Shown piece by piece: positions 6,307 to 43,819 of a DNA stretch of 64,000 nt; position 1 is the first letter of the stretch; each line of letters begins with the position of its first letter. The position numbers and the translations under genes were made by a program. This DNA is from a virus. The stretch lies in UHGV virus genome UHGV-0072281; one strand, 5' to 3'. The notes under the pieces were generated by a model, which saw only the letters and a program-made list of their open reading frames with translations, was not told where the DNA came from and searched no databases.

Positions 6307-8016
6307 ATGTACGAATTCCACATGACCTTTACCAGCATGGGGGTAAGGGTTGAAGTCCCGTGCCGACAGATAGAGTCGGCGATACTTAAGTGGGCAGAAG
6401 AACATATGCACGCTCCTAAGATGGGCAAGCAATACGGTCGTATATTCACTGAACGTGGCGATCCGTATTACGCGCATATACCTTCTCTCCGCTCGTTTAT
6501 CTTCCACAGGAACTTTTCTGAGCGTTTACGCATTATTATTAATCGTACGGCCACCGAATTTGGCATTGAGTATAAGCTTTACGAGCATTACTTAACGCAG
6601 GGAACACCTTATCGGTGTAAGTTTGAAAACTACGGCTTTAAGATGGTGGAGGACGATGAGAATTCACGTTTCTTTTACCAGAATGCTGTGGTTGAAACGG
6701 CTTGCGAACCAAATCGTTTTCAAACCATCTTTGAAATTGGTACAGGGATGGGTAAGTCGAAAACGAACATGAAAGTAATGGTACGTAAGGGTGTCAGGAC
6801 GCTACTGATTCACCGTCCGACGTACATCTCAAAATGGTTGTTTGATTTAACTGAAGACCCAACGGGTTTACGTGAGTCGAAAGATGATGTTTTGGTTATC
6901 CAAGGCGTTCAGGCTATCTACGAAGCGTTAGAGATGGGGGAATCAGGCGAATTAGACAAACGTGGGATTAAGGTTATCATTATCTCGACGGTAACGTTGC
7001 AACGATTCCTTAAAGAGTACATTAACACTGCCGCAACTAACCCAGTGAACATTGATGATTTCTACAACACCTTAGGCGTTGGGTTCTTGTCAATGGATGA
7101 AGTGCATGAGCATTTTCATCTGGTGTACATGGCAGGAATAATGCTCAACCCACCACCGTCTGTTGAGATGTCTGCGACGTTACAGCCAGGTGAATCAAAA
7201 GCGTTTTTAGCCGAACGGTATCGAGAGCGTTTTCCACAAGAGTCACGTATATTCATTCCGATTATTCCTGCTGTACACGTTAAAGCGTTGTACTACAGCA
7301 TTGAGAATAAACGGTTTGCGTGGTGGGCGAATAAGATGACGCCGTATAACCACAAGCTATTCGAAGGTAAGTTAATAAGTGAGAACATGCACTTATCTTA
7401 CGCGGATATGGTGTGGGACGTCATCGAGCGAACGTATCTGGCGAGTTACCAGCCTGGTCAGAAAGTGCTGGTGTTGTTTGCAACCGTTGCGATGTGTGAG
7501 TTCTTTACAGAGTACGTGCGAGAGAAACTGGCACAGTCTGATAAGTTCCACGCGCTGATGGTTGCGAAATACAACGCGGGGGATTCGTATGACGACTTTA
7601 TTCAAGCGGATTTCTCGATTTCAACACCAGGGAAAGCAGGCACTGCGGTTGACAAACCGGGGTTGGTCCACATGTACATCACAACGCCTGTGGAAGACCA
7701 GCAGTTAAACCGTCAGATGGCCGGTCGCCCGCGTAAGATACTTCACAACGATTGGGGTGAACTCGATCCCGTTGTGTGGTTATTCCATTCACTCTCGATA
7801 GGGAAACACTGCAATTACTTGAATGCGCGTCAAAAGTCGCTTAGTGATTCTGTGTTGTCGTTTAAGATAGCTTCTTCACCGTATGTTGTAAGGAAAACCA
7901 ATGTTACTACCGCCGCAGCCGACCGAGCCAACAGCACCGTATGCCGGGCTGAACTTAGCAAGTTTTCTCGAAAAGGTTTTAAAGGCATACCCAGACGTCG
8001 AAAACGTCGTCGATAA
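6307..8016 (+). CDS. superfamily-2 (DExH-type) helicase
   Basis: Walker A GTGMGKS and Walker B/DExH MDEVHEH. The C-terminus is polybasic (PRRRKRRR) and overlaps the next gene by 116 nt. Confidence 0.75.
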   Translation: MYEFHMTFTSMGVRVEVPCRQIESAILKWAEEHMHAPKMGKQYGRIFTERGDPYYAHIPSLRSFIFHRNFSERLRIIINRTATEFGIEYKLYEHYLTQGTPYRCKFENYGFKMVEDDENSRFFYQNAVVETACEPNRFQTIFEIGTGMGKSKTNMKVMVRKGVRTLLIHRPTYISKWLFDLTEDPTGLRESKDDVLVIQGVQAIYEALEMGESGELDKRGIKVIIISTVTLQRFLKEYINTAATNPVNIDDFYNTLGVGFLSMDEVHEHFHLVYMAGIMLNPPPSVEMSATLQPGESKAFLAERYRERFPQESRIFIPIIPAVHVKALYYSIENKRFAWWANKMTPYNHKLFEGKLISENMHLSYADMVWDVIERTYLASYQPGQKVLVLFATVAMCEFFTEYVREKLAQSDKFHALMVAKYNAGDSYDDFIQADFSISTPGKAGTAVDKPGLVHMYITTPVEDQQLNRQMAGRPRKILHNDWGELDPVVWLFHSLSIGKHCNYLNARQKSLSDSVLSFKIASSPYVVRKTNVTTAAADRANSTVCRAELSKFSRKGFKGIPRRRKRRR

Positions 8017-29126: not shown

Positions 29127-29153
29127 TTTCAGATATATATTACTTAAGTGAGA
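29127..29153 (+). promoter_or_regulatory. candidate phage promoter (AT-rich, TATATTAC-containing)
   Basis: tttcagatatatattacttaagtgaga matches 37382-37408 at 26 of 27 positions. It lies just after a terminator and upstream of a gene, and is followed by the inverted repeat gagattac-aca-gtaatctc. Confidence 0.6.
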
Positions 29154-37381: not shown

Positions 37382-37408
37382 TTTCAGATATATATTACTT
37401 AGGTGAGA
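37382..37408 (+). promoter_or_regulatory. candidate phage promoter (second copy of the TATATTAC element)
   Basis: tttcagatatatattacttaggtgaga matches 29127-29153 at 26 of 27 positions. The A/T-rich upstream flank is similar, and the palindrome attacgtaat follows downstream. Confidence 0.6.
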
Positions 37409-37455: not shown

Positions 37456-37599
37456 ATGATTTCTGTAAAACACAAAAAAGCTATCTTCGCTGTTGTTATC
37501 GCTGTTGTTCTGGGTTGCCTGTACCTGGATATCGACAAAGGCTACGACACTTGCATCGACAACGGTAATTCCGTTGCGCAGTGCACTGGTCGTGGTTAA
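37456..37599 (+). CDS. small membrane protein (47 aa), not in the ORF track
   Basis: MISVKHKKAIFAVVIAVVLGCLYLDIDKGYDTCIDNGNSVAQCTGRG. It has TAGGAG upstream, one hydrophobic helix and a UUCG-loop terminator immediately after. Confidence 0.6.
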   Translation: MISVKHKKAIFAVVIAVVLGCLYLDIDKGYDTCIDNGNSVAQCTGRG

Positions 37600-37653: not shown

Positions 37654-38469
37654 ATGATTACTATTAAAGATTATTTTCCGCGTGGGTTGAGCAATGAAAA
37701 CTTCGTTCCAACTGAAGACATTGCCATCGTTGCAGAGTCCAGCGATAAGTCTTTTAAACTCTACTTGAGTACGGCAGCAGGAAAATCCACTCTTATCCTT
37801 CGTGAACCTGAAGTGATAAGCATCTGCTCGTTTGGGGGTGGTGTAGAAGGAACGATTAACTGGTTGAAATCCAGAATGCATCGTTTGCTTATCGTGAATA
37901 CCGATCCTGTGATTCGTTTACAGCAATTGAAATCGTTGAATGAAATTATCGTCGGATTATTGGAACATGAAACGTTTGGTAATGCTGAGATTGCGGAAGC
38001 GATTAAATCTGTAGAACTAATCGAGTGGAGCGATATCGAATACGAACGTGCTGGGTTATTCGCAATGTACGGTGATGATAATCCCGTTGCGTTTGCACAA
38101 ACGTTGGATAATGTTACCGTAACAGCGCGCGTATTGTTTGGTTTACAACGTGTTGAGTTTGAACTGAAACACGTCTACGTGAGCAATAAACCGGAGATGG
38201 TGGAGACATTGATTCGTGCTTTCGCATACCCGTTAGACGGTGAATGGGAACAGCAGATTAATGAAGCGTTAGAAGCCATGCATTTCCTGGCTGAAACGTT
38301 AAGGAAGGATGAGAAATTGAAAGGTCGTGTTTATCCAGAACACGATTTTGTTTGTGAAGAATGTGGAGCACAGTATCAAATCCGTGTTCCTTTAACCGGC
38401 CTAACATTCCCGCAAGCCAACGTGCAATGTAAGGAATGTGGTCATGTTCAATACGTAGCGATTAAATAA
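37654..38469 (+). CDS. hypothetical protein (271 aa) with a C-terminal zinc-ribbon-like CxxC...CxxC
   Basis: ORF with TGGAGC upstream. The C-terminus reads CEECGAQY...CKECGH. Confidence 0.75.
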   Translation: MITIKDYFPRGLSNENFVPTEDIAIVAESSDKSFKLYLSTAAGKSTLILREPEVISICSFGGGVEGTINWLKSRMHRLLIVNTDPVIRLQQLKSLNEIIVGLLEHETFGNAEIAEAIKSVELIEWSDIEYERAGLFAMYGDDNPVAFAQTLDNVTVTARVLFGLQRVEFELKHVYVSNKPEMVETLIRAFAYPLDGEWEQQINEALEAMHFLAETLRKDEKLKGRVYPEHDFVCEECGAQYQIRVPLTGLTFPQANVQCKECGHVQYVAIK

Positions 38470-38474
38470 AAGCA

Positions 38475-38518
38475 ACCCCTAATCCCGAAAAGGATTAGGG
38501 GTACACTTTATTTATTTT
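38475..38518 (+). terminator. intrinsic terminator
   Basis: acccctaatcc-cgaaaa-ggattaggggt hairpin followed by a T-rich tail. Confidence 0.8.
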
Positions 38519-38541
38519 CGCTCTTAAAAGGAAATTGTGTC

Positions 38542-38697
38542 ATGAGAAATGTTAATGCAATGCTTAACCAGGCATTTGTTAACCAACAGCGTTTTCAGGA
38601 ACGCTTAGCACAACTTAAAACACAACACAGACCACCACAACAAAGAGTGGTTAAGAGCAAGTTCGGCGAAATGGTTTTCGAAAGAAAATCTTTCTAA
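38542..38697 (+). CDS. small basic Gln/Asn-rich protein, paralog 1 of 3 (51 aa), not in the ORF track
   Basis: MRNVNAMLNQAFVNQQRFQERLAQLKTQHRPPQQRVVKSKFGEMVFERKSF. It has AAAGGA upstream and a terminator hairpin after it, and shares ERL...FERKS with its neighbours. Confidence 0.55.
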   Translation: MRNVNAMLNQAFVNQQRFQERLAQLKTQHRPPQQRVVKSKFGEMVFERKSF

Positions 38698-38705
38698 TAA
38701 CCGTT

Positions 38706-38730
38706 AGGGGTGTGACAGCACCCCTTTTTA
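38706..38730 (+). terminator. intrinsic terminator after small ORF 1
   Basis: aggggtg-tgacag-cacccct hairpin followed by ttttta. Confidence 0.7.
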
Positions 38731-38731
38731 C

Positions 38732-38818
38732 GCTTTAACTTTTCCAAAGAGAAGTTAAAGCAGTAAGGACTGTTGGCGCAGTCCTTACTTGTCATCGCTA
38801 TTACAGAAACGTGATAGC
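38732..38818 (+). other. three consecutive stable hairpins of unknown function (possible structured RNA)
   Basis: Three stems: 10 bp at 38732-38761 (gctttaactt/aagttaaagc), 11 bp at 38762-38789 (agtaaggactg/cagtccttact) and 8 bp at 38797-38818. No ORF covers them. Confidence 0.4.
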
Positions 38819-38847
38819 ACAATTCTAATTTTTAGAGGCGATCAGAA

Positions 38848-39015
38848 ATGTTCGACAGTATTACACAAATTTTTAACACTACCGTAAACAATCACGCTCA
38901 GCAAGCGAAGTTTAATGAACGATTAAGGGAAGTTCAACAATTAGGATTAAATAAAAGATTAAAATCTTCCAATAATCCTCGAGTACAGATCTTCACCGAA
39001 AGGAGAAGTAACTGA
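38848..39015 (+). CDS. small basic Gln/Asn-rich protein, paralog 2 of 3 (55 aa), not in the ORF track
   Basis: MFDSITQIFNTTVNNHAQQAKFNERLREVQQLGLNKRLKSSNNPRVQIFTERRSN. It has AGAGG upstream and shares QLG.NKRLK.S.N...QI.TE.RS with paralog 3. Confidence 0.6.
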   Translation: MFDSITQIFNTTVNNHAQQAKFNERLREVQQLGLNKRLKSSNNPRVQIFTERRSN

Positions 39016-39022
39016 TAAAAAC

Positions 39023-39053
39023 AAGGTGAGCTGTTGGAGCAGCTCACCTTTTA
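39023..39053 (+). terminator. hairpin/terminator after small ORF 2
   Basis: aaggtgagctg-ttggag-cagctcacctt hairpin with a short T tail. The ctg-ttgg.g-cag core resembles the hairpin at 38762-38789. Confidence 0.55.
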
Positions 39054-39111
39054 CAACGCCATTACGTTTCCGTAATGGATTTCTTTAATCACCCTACAAA
39101 GAGGGCTTACC

Positions 39112-39285
39112 ATGAACAATGGTTACTACTTTACTGACAAAATGCTTGCAGAACAATATGCAGCAAAAACCAATTTACAGCAACGTATCTACGAGTATAG
39201 TCAACTCGGTGCGAATAAACGATTAAAACCATCAACCAACCGTTTCACACAGATAATCACTGAAAAAAGGAGTGAACGCTACTAA
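39112..39285 (+). CDS. small basic Gln/Asn-rich protein, paralog 3 of 3 (57 aa), not in the ORF track
   Basis: MNNGYYFTDKMLAEQYAAKTNLQQRIYEYSQLGANKRLKPSTNRFTQIITEKRSERY. It has AGAGGG upstream and is followed by a hairpin at 39294-39315. Confidence 0.6.
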   Translation: MNNGYYFTDKMLAEQYAAKTNLQQRIYEYSQLGANKRLKPSTNRFTQIITEKRSERY

Positions 39286-39420
39286 CTAATAAAAGGGGGT
39301 GTGCTACCACCCCCTACTTAGTTCAGCAGTTGTCTTTCGTTCATAAATATTAGATGTCTTGTTTTTTTTTGCTTTTCGGGACGCATAAGGGGTCGTAGGG
39401 GGAGCCGAAGCTCCCCAGAC

Positions 39421-40983
39421 TCAAAAGAGTTCGTCACCCATACCGCCTGTAAAGACGTTAATCGACGATGCAGTCACTGTTTCTTCTTTATCGCAATCCC
39501 ATGGCAGAATGCCAACTTCACGGAAAGGTATTACTGTATAATGGTAAGCTTCTTTAGTATCGATAATTGTACGGTGTTTACCACGTTGTACTTCTAAGTA
39601 ACTATGCCCATTGACAACACGTTTGTTAAAATACATCTCACCGTCAGCTTCGTTATCCAAGCTGGAGCAGTTATCGTAAAGACCGCGACCTGGTAAGTTC
39701 TTACAGAAACTTGCTGGGTCTAACGCTTTTAATTTTTTGCCTTCTGGTGAGATTTGGTGTGGCGCTAACAAGAAACCACGGTTACGTACTACCTGGATGT
39801 TTCGAGCGATACGATAAATTTCTTTAATGTCGCTACCGGCAATCCCGTTACCGTGACCTGCTTTACTGATAGTCCCGAAATAGTCTCCGCGAATCCCAGC
39901 TACATGATAACCTCGACGCTTTAAGTCCAGTATTAAGTCGTTTAAGTAATGTATTTTAAAATCTGAGTTTGTGTGTTTCTGAAAGATGTACTCCCAACCG
40001 TTAGCCCGCATTTTACTACAGAGGTAGTCCGACATTTTTGTGTTGTGTAAAGCTTTCTCTTCGTCGGTAGCGTTTTCAGAAGCAACCATAACCGGTGCTT
40101 CACCTTCAAAATGACCGTAGAGCGCTTGGTACGCATACGCCAAATTAACGTCCAGTTCGTTCTCTAAACTTAAATCGAGAATAACCGGCTGTAAATCCCC
40201 TTTAACGTTTTCCATTACCTTTTCAGGCGTATTGAATACCGGAATACTGATAGACAACAACAGACTAAAAAGCGATTTACAGTTAAAGGGCAGTGCAGGC
40301 ATTAGCCAAAGTTCTTCAGTAATCCCTTTGTTACAACCCAACATCTGGTTAATGGCTTTCCATCCGGTACGTAAACCATTACCCGCTGCTTTCTTACTGA
40401 TTGAGTCGAACACATGTACGAACGGTGCACGGTTATCCGTAATAAGTTCACCTACGAGTGAGGGAATCTTATTATGAGAGCGTTCACTGAACGTAGAGAG
40501 ACTATCTCTGAGGTCGTTGAGCGCTGTTTGTAAATCAACGCGCGTTTCGGTTCCGTTCAGTGCGCCTAACGTACGACCTAATTTTTGTTTCAGTTGTACG
40601 CCTTGAATAGCTTGACGTAATTGGAAGTAGTATTGTGCTACTTGACGGTTAAGATGCTCGATGCGTGCTTCTGGTTCTTCTGGAATATCATCTTCCAGGA
40701 ATTTGGTAATCGTATCGTATAGAGGACGTATTTGCGTAGTGGCCAGTTTCAAACGTTTCATGACGTTTGTGTGGTCGTAAGGCATACCGCCGTCTATGAT
40801 GGATGTGATGATATCCTTGATTTCGACGAGGGCGGCACGTTCGTCACCTTCCTCTACGTAATCAGGAAGCTTAGCCTCTAACAGCACTTTTCTTATGACC
40901 TCGTGATCCTTCTCAGGGTCGGTCAGCAGACTTTCAGTGTATAGTGTGGCTAATGCGGTTATCAACATCATTTTGTTATTCAT
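39421..40983 (-). CDS. hypothetical protein (520 aa); C-terminal half loosely resembles a DnaB/RecA-type ATPase core with a degenerate P-loop
   Basis: FLLAPHQISPEGKK and LDNEADGEMYFNKR...LEVQRGKHR resemble the DnaB-family SQLNR and ADxVxxLxR...KxRxG motifs. The Walker A position reads PFNCKS, with no GKS/T. Confidence 0.7.
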   Translation of the reverse strand: MNNKMMLITALATLYTESLLTDPEKDHEVIRKVLLEAKLPDYVEEGDERAALVEIKDIITSIIDGGMPYDHTNVMKRLKLATTQIRPLYDTITKFLEDDIPEEPEARIEHLNRQVAQYYFQLRQAIQGVQLKQKLGRTLGALNGTETRVDLQTALNDLRDSLSTFSERSHNKIPSLVGELITDNRAPFVHVFDSISKKAAGNGLRTGWKAINQMLGCNKGITEELWLMPALPFNCKSLFSLLLSISIPVFNTPEKVMENVKGDLQPVILDLSLENELDVNLAYAYQALYGHFEGEAPVMVASENATDEEKALHNTKMSDYLCSKMRANGWEYIFQKHTNSDFKIHYLNDLILDLKRRGYHVAGIRGDYFGTISKAGHGNGIAGSDIKEIYRIARNIQVVRNRGFLLAPHQISPEGKKLKALDPASFCKNLPGRGLYDNCSSLDNEADGEMYFNKRVVNGHSYLEVQRGKHRTIIDTKEAYHYTVIPFREVGILPWDCDKEETVTASSINVFTGGMGDELF

Positions 40984-41533: not shown

Positions 41534-43819
41534 ATGAAAGATACCCGAATCTCTAATTTAGAGAAACTCGTAGAAGCCGGTACTAGTCTGGCCCAAAACG
41601 TCATCGGCAACAACACCGCCAGCGAAATGTGGAAGACGATTGTTGCAGGCGAGTCCGTACGTAGCAACGCAAAAGTATTTGGCGCTCTGCGTGACGAAGC
41701 ATCACAGCACTATGCCAACGCTTTTGGCGGCAAGAAAATGTCTCATGCTGCGACCGTCGCTTCCGCAATGATTCTGGGCGTAGCTAACCACGGTAAAGAC
41801 CTGCAAGAACGTGTTGCCCAGGAATACGCTAAGCCGGAATTCCACACCAAGTATAACCTGGATATTGGTATCCCTGGTGCGCAAGGTGGTGATTGGGGTC
41901 GTGAGCGTATGGTTGTTGCTCAGGAATACTACAGCAACAAAGACTACGACAAAAACTTGGGCCTGACCTGGACCCTGAACGTACGTGCTCTGGAAACTCA
42001 GTCCAAGTTTGCTGAAACACTGTTCCCGACCATTACCGTTGACACCAACGATGTTGGTATTACCGTACGTACTAAAGTGACTACCGTTTCTCGCGGTATC
42101 ATGAACGCGCTGCTGAGCAAAGACGTCGTTGAAGATCATCGTCGTCCGCTGCACAACGCACTGACTGACCACACCGTTCTCCAGGACGAAGCGATCAACA
42201 TCGTTCCTTACGTAATGGAAACCGGTGAAAACCAGGAATACTTCGTAAGCGAAGATCTGGTTCCGAACGAAAAAGTTCGCCTGGGTCGTGTACCTCCGTA
42301 TCCGACTAACTACCTGAGCTTTGCAAACGACACGCTGAACCTGTTCCAGCTGTCTGCGCATCCGGGTATCGTTCAGGAAGGTTACGATGAAACTGATGAA
42401 ATCGCACCGGGTTGTGCTCTGGGCAGCCTGCTGATTTCTGTACGTAAACCGGCCGAAGAAGCGAAAGCGGGTAAATTCATCAAACTGCACGTTCGTGACA
42501 TGCAGTTCGCAACCTTCCAGCGTCCTGCTGAAGGTGACGGCCGTGAACTGGTTCTGCAATTCCGTCGTACCGCGTTCTCTCTGAATGCGAAAACCACTGA
42601 CTGGAAAGGCGACGCTATTCCGGCACTGCAAGCACTGGGCCAGAACTCCTACACCCTGCGCTACGTTATCACCATCACCATGTCCCTGTTCACCAGCGGC
42701 CAGTTCGGTGGTAAAGTAGACATTTCCGGCCACAAACTGGAAATCGAAGGTCTGTACGATGCAACTGGTAACAAAGTTGATACCAAGTCTGGTACCGGCA
42801 AAGTTATCCTGGATGGCCTGAAACTCGAACTGATGGGCTGGCGCTTCGATGGTACTCGTACCAACGAAAACCGTCGTACCCAGGGTCTGCTGCTTGACCC
42901 AATTTGGGAACAGGAAAACTACAAACTGCAATACGGTTCTCCGATTCTGACCAAGTCTCCGGTTGGTGTTGAATACGACGACACTGAACGTCTGGATGAC
43001 CTGATCTCTGCGGTGAACATCCGTAACGAACAGCTGGCTATTACTCAGACGCTGTCTTACACTGAAGCAGTACGTAACGCAGCCGCTGCGATGATCACTC
43101 CGTGGGACAAACCGGCTATCCGTGGTCTGGGCCGTCACTGGGTTGCTCCGTGGTTCAAAGAGTCTGACTACAAAGTCGATGAAGTTGTTCAGTCTCTGGA
43201 TACCAAAGAAGCGCTGATCAACGCTCGTCAGGGTCTGTTGCAGCGTATCGGTAGCCAGGTAACTCAGGCTATCCAGGATTCTCGTTTCATTCCTGCACTG
43301 CGCCTGCTGACCGCTGATCCGGACATTCTTCCGAAAGTTATTATCGCAACTGACGAACCGACTGCATCCATGCTGCTGCTGGTTCAGGGCGACCAACGTC
43401 TGCTGGGCGACCGTTATGAATACGAAGTCGTTACCACCAACGATGACCGCTGGCGTATCTACAACGCAGCTGACGATTCCTGGACTCGTCGTCTGCAATG
43501 GTTCCTGAAAGTTCCGACTGCGGACGATGGTTCCTACTGCGTACTGAACTGGGGTAACCACTTCTGGTCTCCGATCATGGTTACCAACATCAACATTCAG
43601 CGTAACGGTTCTACTTCTAAAGAACTGGCTGTACAGCCGCGTAACGCGCATATCTGCCACTGCCCGATCACTGGTCTGATTTGGGTTAAAGGCATCACCA
43701 AACTGGTTGAAGAAAAACTGGCTTACAACGTTTCTGTAGAACAGAACGGCCAGAAACAAACCGAAGGTGGTGTAGCAGGTAACCTTGCTGTCGAAGGCAA
43801 AGCTACCGCTGGTAAATAA
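41534..43819 (+). CDS. putative major capsid protein precursor
   Basis: 761-aa ORF with the strongest codon bias in the window (685-codon stop-free antisense frame) and a strong terminator after it. The N-terminal part contains AGE-S and two AQE-Y sites matching the S/A/G-x-E cleavage rule recalled for phiKZ-type prohead proteases. The size is similar to what I recall for phiKZ-type capsid proteins. Confidence 0.55.
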   Translation: MKDTRISNLEKLVEAGTSLAQNVIGNNTASEMWKTIVAGESVRSNAKVFGALRDEASQHYANAFGGKKMSHAATVASAMILGVANHGKDLQERVAQEYAKPEFHTKYNLDIGIPGAQGGDWGRERMVVAQEYYSNKDYDKNLGLTWTLNVRALETQSKFAETLFPTITVDTNDVGITVRTKVTTVSRGIMNALLSKDVVEDHRRPLHNALTDHTVLQDEAINIVPYVMETGENQEYFVSEDLVPNEKVRLGRVPPYPTNYLSFANDTLNLFQLSAHPGIVQEGYDETDEIAPGCALGSLLISVRKPAEEAKAGKFIKLHVRDMQFATFQRPAEGDGRELVLQFRRTAFSLNAKTTDWKGDAIPALQALGQNSYTLRYVITITMSLFTSGQFGGKVDISGHKLEIEGLYDATGNKVDTKSGTGKVILDGLKLELMGWRFDGTRTNENRRTQGLLLDPIWEQENYKLQYGSPILTKSPVGVEYDDTERLDDLISAVNIRNEQLAITQTLSYTEAVRNAAAAMITPWDKPAIRGLGRHWVAPWFKESDYKVDEVVQSLDTKEALINARQGLLQRIGSQVTQAIQDSRFIPALRLLTADPDILPKVIIATDEPTASMLLLVQGDQRLLGDRYEYEVVTTNDDRWRIYNAADDSWTRRLQWFLKVPTADDGSYCVLNWGNHFWSPIMVTNINIQRNGSTSKELAVQPRNAHICHCPITGLIWVKGITKLVEEKLAYNVSVEQNGQKQTEGGVAGNLAVEGKATAGK

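Follow-up and report, generated by a model that had tools for sequence, protein, structure and literature searches.

In the 64-kb window analysed here (64,000 nucleotides of the virus genome UHGV-0072281), a 951-nt gap between a gene for a Zn-ribbon protein and a convergent gene for a DnaB-like replicative helicase carries three small genes for basic proteins. The source is a nucleus-forming jumbo phage of the Bapsvirus/Seoulvirus type (Chimalliviridae), and the region is a hyperplastic cassette locus. The reading that we favour, and consider somewhat probable as a whole, is that of a cassette locus in which three translated basic-protein genes are bounded by hairpins, recombined among related phages, and used for the production of accessory binding factors.

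The three genes had been proposed from the sequence alone as ATG-initiated ORFs on the plus strand, each equipped with a Shine-Dalgarno sequence (SD) and followed by a GC-rich hairpin after the stop codon, and all three were recovered in full with these signals (Table 1). When the 951-nt gap was shuffled with its dinucleotides preserved, three ATG ORFs with a length of 50 aa or more on the same strand were obtained in only 4 of 2000 cases. The genes are indeed absent from the ORF track, as had been stated, and this absence is due only to its length threshold. The AT-richness noticed beforehand is present and modest, with a GC content of 0.37-0.39 in the array compared with 0.42-0.46 in the flanking genes, while the C-terminal strings quoted for the products had to be reassigned, their listing order actually being ORF2, ORF3 and ORF1.

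Table 1. Features of the cassette array and its flanks (positions in the window; T, terminator; H2 and H3, spacer hairpins).
Feature	Position	Strand	Remarks
Candidate phage early promoter CAGATATATATTACTTA	37385..37401	+	within longer conserved block
Conserved 47-aa membrane mini-protein gene	37456..37599	+	first gene of unit
271-aa gene, C-terminal Zn ribbon	37654..38469	+	upstream neighbour of array
Bidirectional terminator hairpin of Zn-ribbon gene, then TTTATTTATTTTC	38475..38502	both	
SD of ORF1, AAGGA	38528-38532	+	9 nt ahead of ATG
Cassette type A gene (ORF1)	38542..38697	+	51 aa, net charge +7
Terminator (T) of cassette A, GGGGTG-TGACAG-CACCCC + TTTTT	38707..38729	+	predicted intrinsic
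Spacer hairpin H2, GCTTTAACTTTTC-CAAA-GAGAAGTTAAAGC	38732..38761	+	conserved sequence, shared inter-cassette repeat
Spacer hairpin H3, 11-bp stem, 6-nt loop	38762..38789	+	directly abuts H2
Leader hairpin of cassette B, GCTATTAC-AGAAAC-GTGATAGC	38797..38818	+	~29 nt before start codon
SD of ORF2, AGAGG	38834-38838	+	9 nt ahead of ATG
Cassette type B gene (ORF2)	38848..39015	+	55 aa, net charge +5
H3-type hairpin after cassette B, AAGGTGAGCTG-TTGGAG-CAGCTCACCTT	39023..39050	both	terminator-like
Leader hairpin of cassette C, CCATTACG-TTTC-CGTAATGG	39059..39078	+	
SD of ORF3, AGAGGG	39100-39105	+	6 nt ahead of ATG
Cassette type C gene (ORF3)	39112..39285	+	57 aa, net charge +5
Array-end hairpin GGGGGTG-TGCTAC-CACCCCC	39294..39315		ends array on +; T-run on -
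Convergent DnaB-like replicative helicase gene	39421..40983	-	downstream boundary of slot

All three ORFs are coding and under purifying selection. Type B was found as 10 DNA alleles among 23 genomes, and its variable sites are distributed over the three codon positions as 7/7/21 with a pN/pS of 0.19 (seven 168-nt alleles). The corresponding distributions are 7/4/16 for type C (pN/pS 0.17, 23 closely related genomes) and 1/1/14 for type F, a further occupant of the slot (23 genomes). Across the 23 genomes pN/pS ranges from 0.10 to 0.19, pairwise values lie between 0.12 and 0.19, and the amino-acid pattern is retained between phages whose DNA is no longer alignable. The proposal that these are genuine, selected small protein genes and not noise is thus borne out by the third-position variation and the low pN/pS. 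Frame-disrupting indels, which had been named beforehand as evidence against the genes, do occur: type D is frameshifted in the relatives L021-L029, and type B is 5′-truncated in L006 and L036. At least one intact slot gene is nevertheless present in 25 of the 25 genomes of the lineage (in L036 and L037 only type F, whose relatedness is unproven), so that the decay of single cassettes is therefore attributed to redundancy and not to a non-coding region.

The relatedness of the products was assessed by pairwise and profile comparisons. ORF2 and ORF3 share 49% identity across a 39-aa stretch (BLASTP, E = 4e-11), and pairwise relatedness of ORF1 was undetected by BLASTP (E = 1.5). Leave-one-type-out profiles yielded 21.5 bits for ORF1, 39.6 bits for ORF2 and 41.8 bits for ORF3, compared with a shuffle maximum of 9-12 bits, and 0 of 1000 shuffles attained the real scores. 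Over types A-E and the SPN3US type, leave-one-type-out HMM scores span 19-42 bits, the SPN3US type reaching 19.0 bits against the rest. Type F scored 0.4 bits against the family profile; it has the slot and the charge in common with the other types, and homology is not demonstrable. On the evidence of these profiles, the A, B and C genes and the SPN3US genes gp71 and gp72 (phrog_18219) belong to one clade-restricted family, the direct hmmscan against phrog_18219 giving a weak match for ORF1 (E = 0.086, the best PHROGs value of any window type and not significant) and no match for ORF2 and ORF3. A search with the family profile returned 66 clusters, all of 40-87 aa and mostly located on phage contigs of 215-245 kb, and in an exhaustive search of 1.84 billion proteins the family was found in this SPN3US-like jumbo-phage clade only. 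The novelty of the genes had been overstated in the sequence-only reading, because same-slot homologues are already annotated as hypothetical in SPN3US (SPN3US_0071/0072, YP_009153365/6; phrog_18219, 'unknown function'), with orthologues in the Erwinia phages Machina, Parshik and pEa_SNUABM_6 and in Salmonella phage pSal-SNUABM-04.

In every genome carrying the family, its members occupy the same slot on the same strand, between a gp70-like gene and the convergent helicase gene. This applies to SPN3US, to Parshik/Machina-type phages and to the relatives L011 and L013, while the slot is without a family gene in phiEaH2, in the related metagenomic contig L008 and in more distant chimalliviruses in which the helicase and capsid module is the same. 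Due to the fact that the ORF queries are short, the flanking helicase was taken as search anchor. With the array itself, no match was obtained by blastn in distant mode against 50,697 phage records, and tblastn gave no match for ORF2 and chance-level matches only for ORF1. Pfam, PHROGs (beyond phrog_18219) and NCBIfam returned nothing for the small proteins, and neither did a sequence profile search of PDB or Foldseek against PDB and BFVD. The literature searched on SPN3US gp71/gp72, on transcriptomics and on chimallivirus hypervariable loci contains no statement on these genes; their not being mentioned in the SPN3US virion and essential-gene papers neither supports nor excludes a role.

Both hairpin types described in the sequence-only reading were confirmed as real by repeat analysis. 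Each cassette is a self-contained unit that comprises a leader hairpin, a stretch of approximately 30 nt in which a strong SD is located, then the ORF and a GC-rich terminator, and the units are parted by the conserved double hairpin of H2 and H3. Runs of T accompany the hairpins at 38707-38729 (T5 on the plus strand), at 39023-39050 (TTTT on the plus strand, T-run on the minus strand) and at 39294-39315 (minus strand only), so that the last of these is predicted to serve additionally as terminator of the convergent helicase gene; H2, H3 and the leader hairpins are without T-runs. H2 is confined to a single locus, since it is unique both in the window and in a complete relative of 222,441 bp, where the small-gene family is likewise found at this locus only. 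In relatives H2 occurs 1-2 times per array, and the T+H2+H3 block is present once or twice per array at differing positions. The U·G pair of H2 is invariant in 14 of 14 copies, and in H3 6 of the 11 pairs are changed on both sides in a compensatory manner, with 99.4% of cells paired. As the U·G pair fits only the plus strand as RNA, the spacer appears to act as plus-strand RNA, and a plus-strand RNA structure of the spacers is shown by these sequence comparisons. Loops are less constant in orientation: those of H3 flip between relatives, and that of the cassette A terminator is inverted (CTGTCA) in L004. Cassette B is accompanied by its leader hairpin in L004 and L021 as well, and in the cassette C leader of L006 (CCACCACG/CGTAGTGG) the stem is kept by changes on both arms. 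In L021-type arrays a T+H2 unit, missing in the window and in L004, is located ahead of the hairpin that follows cassette B.

A search of the spacers for promoter motifs, whether σ70-like or of phage type, found none. The conserved TCAGATATATATTAC motif occurs just once in the unit, upstream of all of it, and a promoter of an unrecognised type is possible in the spacers. The hairpins might function as terminators, 3′-end stabilisers or processing sites and would thereby give rise to short, stable mono-cistronic mRNAs. Rfam searches at E up to 10 gave sub-threshold noise only, no tRNA was found, and a 15-mer scan of IMG/VR with the H2 arm was uninformative, its at least 120 matches being unrelated and due to chance.

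At least five related, ancient cassette types (A-E) and the sixth slot occupant F were distinguished. Besides the A-B-C order of the window, the architectures D-B-E, F-E, ΔB-C-(F remnant)-E and D*-B-C were found, as well as B-F, ΔB-F, F-C, D-E and A-E. The flanks are 93-100% identical between genomes with differing array content, and the arrays contain truncated and frameshifted remnants and stubs as well as a D/F fusion protein (P0018). The earlier characterisation as a fast-turnover accessory family is in agreement with these data, the copy number ranging from 0 to 3 across relatives, and the comparison shows the locus to be the most plastic spot of an otherwise conserved replication/capsid module. 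Arrays would arise with the shared T/H2 repeat and microhomologies serving as sites of recombination and deletion, leaving 1-3 intact genes and remnants. The junctions between the window and L161 and between the window and L004 are located at H2/H3 and at the terminator, and other junctions lie inside ORFs at microhomologies. Most architectures can be explained by simple differential deletion if the ancestral array was [A|D]-B-C-F-E, in which case the 'shuffling' may mainly be loss and not exchange; the F-C array of L038 and the alternation of A and D speak for a degree of genuine exchange. We rejected a DGR or shufflon mechanism because neither a reverse transcriptase nor a recombinase is present and the cassettes all have the same orientation.

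Two other accounts of the region itself were weighed against these observations. The dense hairpins, with 14 terminator-like sites in the 4-kb surroundings compared with 3.3 expected, and the covariation of the hairpins would also suit a boundary between convergent transcripts that is occupied by clustered non-coding elements, namely terminators and structured RNAs, with the ORFs being accidental; cassettes A and D are moreover without PGAP annotation in RefSeq, and weak Rfam antitoxin sRNA matches were obtained (E of at least 3, far under the gathering scores). This account is effectively refuted by the codon-position test in the called frames and is regarded as extremely unlikely, given also the peptide pattern conserved where DNA is unalignable, profile scores that shuffles never matched, the rarity of an ORF trio of such size in shuffled sequence and the conserved SD at proper spacing ahead of each ORF. 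Hardly better placed, and very unlikely, is the recent local triplication of a single tiny gene with its terminator that the sequence-only reading had put forward on the strength of three same-strand copies with similar hairpins, to which the identity of ORF2 and ORF3 could be added. In the family alignment, however, ORF1 shares just 14-16% identity with ORF2 and ORF3, it has no significant BLASTP match to ORF2, and no DNA repeat of more than 18 nt joins the copies. Each copy has an orthologue of 75-100% identity elsewhere, in different company, and two diverged copies are already present in SPN3US. Copies arisen in place should cluster apart from the A, B and C copies of other genomes, and the data show the opposite. 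The copies are 14-49% identical to one another and each has near-identical orthologues in other genomes, from which it follows that old types have been combined in the array and that no recent in-place amplification took place.

The array may be the tail of an early transcription unit with its head at the conserved TCAGATATATATTAC motif at 37385. An identical second copy of the 17-mer CAGATATATATTACTTA is located at 29130, and SPN3US has the same motif in the same syntenic position. In the complete 222-kb relative approximately 9 good copies were found, each lying on the plus strand ahead of a gene cluster, and a tenth match, at 169097, is degenerate. Chimalliviruses use their own RNA polymerases for transcription (PMC7598289), and a promoter role of this motif is inferred from that study. 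The early unit would read through a leaky terminator at 38475-38502 into the array, both the timing and the read-through being guesses. The 47-aa mini-protein encoded at its start has orthologues in all relatives, including SPN3US and phiEaH2, and is PGAP-annotated in 'plasmid' records. For the 271-aa protein only weak Pfam Zn-ribbon matches were obtained, and because tblastn against SPN3US loci found no match, its equivalence to gp70 rests on position and on the shared Cys-rich C-terminus; SPN3US gp70 is essential and non-virion (PMC5105663). The gap sequence is identical in all relatives through position 52. TTTATTTATTTTC was rejected as a promoter motif, since it is not enriched (6 matches compared with 3.6 expected) and its context identifies it as the kind of terminator tail that is customary in this phage, in which TTTATTTTTT comes after a GC stem. 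The helicase matches Pfam divDNAB with E = 4.9e-126 and is 84% identical to the helicases of SPN3US and phiEaH2.

The products are strongly basic, as had been noted beforehand: all types have a net charge of +4 to +7 and a pI of 9.8-11.7, carry the charge in their C-terminal half, and contain no Cys. They are polar and basic throughout and are without a hydrophobic or transmembrane segment. The AlphaFold2 model of the 51-aa monomer predicts an amphipathic N-terminal helix (residues 2-28, block-mean pLDDT 70-85) and a weakly supported C-terminal β-hairpin (residues 35-46, pLDDT ~55); a monomer model of this length is of limited information. A β-clamp-binding motif (QLxLF) in the C-terminal strand was rejected because the residues depart from the consensus, and homology to the ribosomal proteins bS21 or Sra was rejected for want of Pfam matches.

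Our best guess is that the proteins constitute a set of partly redundant accessory binding factors. They would be abundant, the helix with its near-invariant F-x-x-R core docking on, or oligomerising with, a partner, and the basic C-terminal tail or hairpin contacting an acidic surface or nucleic acid. Rather unlikely, and still the foremost of the other functional readings, is that they are core nucleic-acid-binding factors, acting as replication, transcription or DNA-compaction accessories together with the helicase or the gp70-like protein, and that isoform variation is neutral drift. The very basic, Q/N-rich composition, the constant position between an essential gene and the replicative helicase gene, the intact slot gene throughout the lineage (only type F in L036 and L037), the fixation of both copies across hundreds of Seoulvirus contigs as judged from cluster sizes, and the strong purifying selection would all be expected of a core factor. 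Against this reading, the slot is without such a gene in phiEaH2, L008 and more distant chimalliviruses that have the same helicase and capsid module; single cassettes decay freely, no homologue exists elsewhere in the protein universe searched, and the family goes unmentioned in the SPN3US virion and essential-gene papers searched.

Control of the phage's own operon is less plausible again. Proteins that are small, basic and probably disordered until bound, a structurally conserved leader hairpin and terminators in every cassette, and several terminators in series behind a single candidate promoter would fit arginine-rich RNA-hairpin binders that, with a logic like that of λ N, bind the leader or spacer hairpins specific to each cassette and regulate termination, read-through or mRNA stability. 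We regard this as quite improbable, since no sequence similarity to any N/ARM family was found, the linkage of protein type and hairpin is trivial at a distance of 30 nt, and no downstream genes need antitermination because the array ends at a convergent gene. Toxic mini-peptides of a type I toxin-antitoxin-like or lysis type agree in size and with the weak Rfam similarity to the antitoxin RNAs RatA and ohsC; the absence of a hydrophobic membrane segment and scores of 19-23 bits compared with gathering scores of 49-50 leave them next to no credibility. Membership in the anti-defence class, suggested in the sequence-only reading along with host takeover and nucleic-acid binding, is compatible with the data only through the hypervariable, accessory character of the family; no function was indicated by any family, structure or paper searched. 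A bolder and doubtful reading would be a dedicated cassette-exchange locus, in which H2 and H3 form a recombination and expression module and co-infecting phages swap basic effectors of ~50 aa, each type neutralising a different host target. If true, the targets could be, e.g., defence or takeover targets reached before the phage nucleus is built, and the locus would be a phage counterpart of integrons or PeSLs that is devoted to a single family of mini-proteins.

The closest known system is the gp71/gp72 pair of SPN3US, which the window genes resemble in slot, strand, size (47-57 aa) and multi-copy state. Common to both are an amphipathic helix with the pattern [FYL]-x-[QE]-R-[LIVM]-x-[EQ]-[LVIY], a subsequent polar linker containing Pro/Gly, and a hydrophobic strand with a basic end, and a GGGGTG-N6-CACCCC terminator follows gp71 as it follows ORF1 and ORF3. 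Differences concern the C-terminus, which is KGLGGEI(I/L)FNK in gp71/gp72 and Q(I/L)xxE(K/R)RS or GEMVFERKSF in the window types, and the organisation: Seoulvirus has a fixed pair, whereas the lineage of the window has five related types and F in variable order and number, its cassettes being parted by the H2/H3 double hairpin that SPN3US lacks.

In T4-type phages, PeSL (promoter-early stem-loop) cassettes mediate modular shuffling in hyperplastic regions, for which host adaptation has been proposed as role (Arbiol 2010, PMC2839356; Comeau 2014, PMC4122927). The locus resembles them in that small ORFs of unknown function are located between blocks of core genes and bounded by a repeated stem-loop motif, and in that indels or replacements between close relatives end in the repeats, although some junctions here lie inside ORFs instead. 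A PeSL combines a σ70 early promoter with a terminator, whereas the spacers of the window have no σ70-like or phage promoter motif; PeSLs are scattered over many hyperplastic regions, H2 is present at one locus; and PeSL ORFs are unrelated, while the cassettes of the window lineage, F excepted, are paralogues of one family.

An integron gene cassette consists of an ORF and an attC imperfect palindrome. By analogy only, the array is similar as a one-directional series of short ORFs in which a palindromic element, conserved at its ends, comes after each ORF, with a single (here candidate) promoter at its head and variable cassette content. Unlike in integrons, no integrase or recombinase gene is found near the array, the U·G pairs point to an RNA-level structure and not to a single-stranded DNA recombination site, and array junctions are also located at microhomologies within ORFs.

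Nothing known is overturned by the findings on this locus, which illustrates with a clean, naturally occurring case how genes are turned over as modules in chimalliviruses. New are the population-genetic proof that the ORFs are real and selected, and the link to SPN3US gp71/gp72. It has become known that the Bapsvirus/Seoulvirus lineage persists in hundreds of Enterobacteriaceae isolates of clinical origin, and because peptides of ~50 aa can be synthesised, the family is a compact testable set of candidate host-interaction factors. Moreover, small proteins are systematically under-annotated in jumbo phages, the NCBI pipeline missing two cassette types even in complete records: types A and D are left unannotated by RefSeq PGAP. 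An identical copy of the type A gene is present, without annotation, in NZ_CP134650.1, and a 96%-identical variant (P0029) was also found.

The gap between two stops, at 38469 for a 271-aa Zn-ribbon gene and at 39421 for the convergent helicase gene, holds three ATG ORFs exactly where the sequence-only reading had placed them. They are real, selected and clade-restricted genes for small basic proteins, organised as self-contained cassettes that come, go and recombine at a structured repeat specific to this locus. The source of the window is a jumbo phage of the SPN3US/phiEaH2 group, and its helicase is 84% identical to those of SPN3US and phiEaH2. Its lineage matches the recently proposed genus 'Bapsvirus', chimalliviruses of ~220-226 kb from E. 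coli, Shigella and Salmonella assemblies (PMC12768965). Two database records described as complete circular 'plasmids', from clinical and wild-bird isolates, belong to the same lineage: E. coli 98232 (NZ_CP173450.1, 221,873 bp) and Enterobacter ludwigii (NZ_CP134650.1, 222,441 bp). These records fit the 'bacterial assembly-associated phage sequences' and Bapsvirus of PMC12768965 and are consistent with the assignment.

Positions of the features in the window unless another record is named
Feature	Position	Strand	Remark
ORF1	38542-38697	+	cassette type A
ORF2	38848-39015	+	cassette type B
ORF3	39112-39285	+	cassette type C
Terminator, H2 and H3 block	38707-38789		spacer hairpins
Flipped loop	38713-38718		TGACAG/CTGTCA, window vs L004
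Flipped loop	38773-38778		TTGGCG/CGCCAA, window vs L004
Small membrane protein gene	37456-37599	+	47 aa, one transmembrane helix, Cys-containing tail (…DTCIDNGNSVAQCTGRG)
Divergent DnaB-like helicase	39421-40983	-	Pfam divDNAB, E = 4.9e-126
phiKZ-type major capsid protein gene	41534-43819
17-mer CAGATATATATTACTTA	29130-29146, 37385-37401	+	within longer conserved block
~30-nt motif, SPN3US locus (L001)	9126-9142	-	same syntenic place
~30-nt motif, NZ_CP134650.1	9783, 13370, 40215, 70469, 141457, 149248, 175838, 196005, 199574	+
Standard terminators	14082, 19448, 29870, 31612, 37257, 38507, 43862, 48773, 56783	+
Block TTTTTTTTTGCTTTTCGGGACGCATAAGGGGTCGTAGGGGGAGCCGAAGCTCCCC	39360-39417		SPN3US L001 ~6600-6650

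Each ORF is preceded by a Shine-Dalgarno sequence 6-9 nt ahead of its start and followed by a GC-rich hairpin 7-9 nt past its stop, and the array is AT-richer than its flanks (GC 0.37-0.39 versus 0.42-0.46), all as had been proposed. The hairpin after ORF3 is not that gene's alone: its T-run lies on the minus strand and terminates the helicase gene. The order in which the three C-termini had been quoted was also wrong. Of 2000 dinucleotide shuffles of the gap, only 4 yielded three ORFs of 50 aa or more on one strand. Hairpins are far denser than by chance, with 14 terminator-like sites in 4 kb where 3.3 were expected.

For comparison, 17 IMG/VR loci with the helicase as anchor, 19 contigs from exact-protein look-ups and the two complete RefSeq 'plasmid' records were used (L-numbers denote such loci and contigs). 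A population test was possible because several of them share 93-100% protein identity with the window in the flanks. In the called frames, pairwise pN/pS was 0.12 (ORF2 versus L004), 0.19 (ORF3 versus L006) and 0.17 (type E). Across 23 genomes, the variable sites fell on the three codon positions as 7/7/21 in type B, 7/4/16 in type C and 1/1/14 in type F, with mean pN/pS of 0.10-0.19 for these types. In distant phages the peptide pattern is retained where the DNA is past alignment. Low pN/pS, third-position variation and a peptide pattern that outlasts DNA similarity argue, from comparative sequence evidence, that the ORFs are translated and under purifying selection. The same three observations exclude a reading as RNA elements only.

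By profile, synteny and properties, the window ORFs belong to the family of SPN3US_0071 and SPN3US_0072 (gp71/gp72). These two genes fill the same slot in SPN3US, are annotated as hypothetical, at 48 aa each, make up phrog_18219 ('unknown function') and go unmentioned in the SPN3US proteome and essential-gene papers. One family gene occupies the slot in Parshik/Machina-type Erwinia phages and in two metagenomic relatives, and none was found in the slot of phiEaH2 and more distant chimalliviruses. Of the proposed kinship, that of ORF2 and ORF3 is plain homology (E = 4e-11); ORF1 was not detectable pairwise and was joined to them by leave-one-type-out HMMs, in which all types except F scored 19-42 bits against the others, a level reached by 0 of 1000 shuffles. 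A profile search of 5.8 billion proteins returned 66 clusters, all of 40-87 aa and most on phage contigs of ~215-245 kb. A filter-free search of 1.84 billion representatives added nothing but one spurious match to a 287-aa protein, a six-frame scan of NZ_CP134650.1 gave no members outside the array, and Pfam, NCBIfam, PDB and BFVD held no relative.

The family alignment is collinear and nearly free of gaps. At the N-terminus it shows an amphipathic helix whose centre carries a [FYL]-x-[QE]-R-[LIVM]-x-[EQ]-[LVIY] motif; next comes a polar linker with Pro or Gly, and after it a short hydrophobic strand and a basic end. All types are basic (net charge +4 to +7, pI 9.8-11.7), with the charge mostly in the C-terminal half, and all lack Cys. 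Gln plus Asn make up 18-27% of types A-E and SPN3US-type members, and only 8% of F. AlphaFold2 with the family alignment predicted a helix at 2-28 (block-mean pLDDT 70-85) and, at low confidence, a β-hairpin at 35-46, with a mean pLDDT of 67.5 for the model as a whole. For so small a domain, oligomerisation or folding upon contact with a partner is most likely.

The 'local triplication' proposed earlier gave way to a combinatorial cassette array, with arrangements of types A-F that differ among genomes with near-identical flanks. Six types occur in the window's own lineage: A-C in the window, the related types D and E in relatives only, and F, likewise in relatives only, for which homology to the others was not demonstrable (0.4 bits). 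The window carries A-B-C. Relatives carry D-B-E (L004), (C remnant)-F-E (L005), ΔB-C-(F remnant)-E (L006), D(frameshifted)-B-C (L021-L029), B-F (L030-35 and L039, in most with an 8-codon stub ahead, read directly in L030 and L031), ΔB-F (L036/37), F-C (L038), D-E (the E. coli 98232 'plasmid') and A-E (the E. ludwigii 'plasmid'). In the last two, PGAP annotated E alone and missed the intact D and A, respectively. Most of the arrays could have arisen by deletion from an order [A|D]-B-C-F-E; the F-C order, the alternation of A and D and a D/F fusion protein (P0018) show that other joints occur too. Single cassettes decay, yet 25 of 25 genomes hold at least one intact slot gene, in L036/L037 type F only. 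Among the database variants of types C, D and E, several (P0004, P0005, P0009, P0055) are frameshifted towards the 3′ end, one such site being the GAAAAAAGGAG run of type C; they may be real slippage variants or assembly errors.

The terminator, H2 and H3 block is present in 1-2 copies per array at varying positions. H2 (GCTTTAACTTTTC-N4-GAGAAGTTAAAGC) is conserved in sequence and was found nowhere else in the 64-kb window or the whole genome of NZ_CP134650.1. In the directly adjoining H3 an 11-bp stem is kept although 6 of its 11 pairs have changed on both sides; 99.4% of cells are paired, with every shuffle and slide control far below. H2 has a U·G pair in 14 of 14 copies, and additional U·G variants exist. 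Since these would be C·A mismatches on the opposite strand, the structure is selected as plus-strand RNA, which is independent evidence for transcription of the array in the same direction as the ORFs. Cassette-specific leader hairpins ~30 nt ahead of each start likewise keep their stems through compensatory changes. Loops of perfect hairpins are often reverse-complemented between close relatives with unchanged stems, as in the window and L004 and in other H3 copies (TATAGG/CCTATA, TTGTAG/CTACAA, CGGTAA/TTACCG, TAGCAC/GTGCTA; L005, L021-L029, L030, L038). Such reverse-complementation of loops is known to mark inversion across palindromic stems, and the flipped loops are recurrent small inversions of this kind across perfect palindromes.

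A strongly conserved ~30-nt motif, AAAAATAAnnTCAGATATATATTAC(T/C)T(A/T)GGTGAGA, spans the 17-mer sites. It recurs ~9 times in NZ_CP134650.1, always on the plus strand, just past a terminator or T-run and 45-70 nt ahead of a gene cluster; the spacers themselves yielded no promoter-like motif. AT-rich early-promoter motifs have been described for RNAP-encoding jumbo phages (PMC7598289). The 17-mer fits these, and the ~30-nt motif probably serves this phage group as its early (virion RNA polymerase) promoter, so that the array would be the tail of an early unit running from promoter through the 47-aa membrane protein, gp70-like gene and terminator to the cassettes. The 47-aa ORF is clearly another tiny real gene, present in each relative looked at, from SPN3US and phiEaH2 to the most distant loci (L015-L018). 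SPN3US gp70, the upstream neighbour of gp71/gp72, is essential and non-virion (PMC5105663).

The cassettes would be expressed early, with hairpins acting as terminators, stabilisers or processing sites. Their proteins would be binding factors with partial redundancy that probably act where phage and host meet. The main rival, a core nucleic-acid-binding role, draws support from the strong purifying selection and the fixed retention in Seoulvirus; it sits poorly with the free decay of single copies and with a slot that holds no family member in phiEaH2-type and more distant relatives. In its architecture the locus behaves like the PeSL cassettes known from T4-type phages (PMC2839356, PMC4122927). 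Two features that define PeSLs are missing, however, namely a recognisable promoter within the repeat and dispersal of the repeat over the genome, and the array is therefore an analogue rather than a member. Resemblance to integron cassettes is formal only, given the lack of a recombinase and structure at the RNA level. The earlier observation of genuine, under-annotated mini-genes was correct; its novelty is modest because homologues were already deposited as hypothetical proteins, and more interest attaches to what was added to it, the turnover of the cassettes and the structured spacer.

In the standard terminator of the phage, TTTATTTTTT(C) follows a GC-rich stem-loop; the copies at 14082 and 19448 have stem and tail in common (…AGTAGGGTAGCTTTTATTTTTTCTTAG). 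Just beyond the helicase stop, the block TTTTTTTTTGCTTTTCGGGACGCATAAGGGGTCGTAGGGGGAGCCGAAGCTCCCC is nearly identical between the window and SPN3US, the remaining intergenic DNA being unalignable, and its sole Rfam match was a chance-level one to 18 nt of CrcZ. Between L004 and the window the helicase is 100% identical and the Zn-ribbon protein only 72%, although its final ~40 residues shown do not differ and neither does the terminator; this difference is a recombination mosaic directly upstream of the array.
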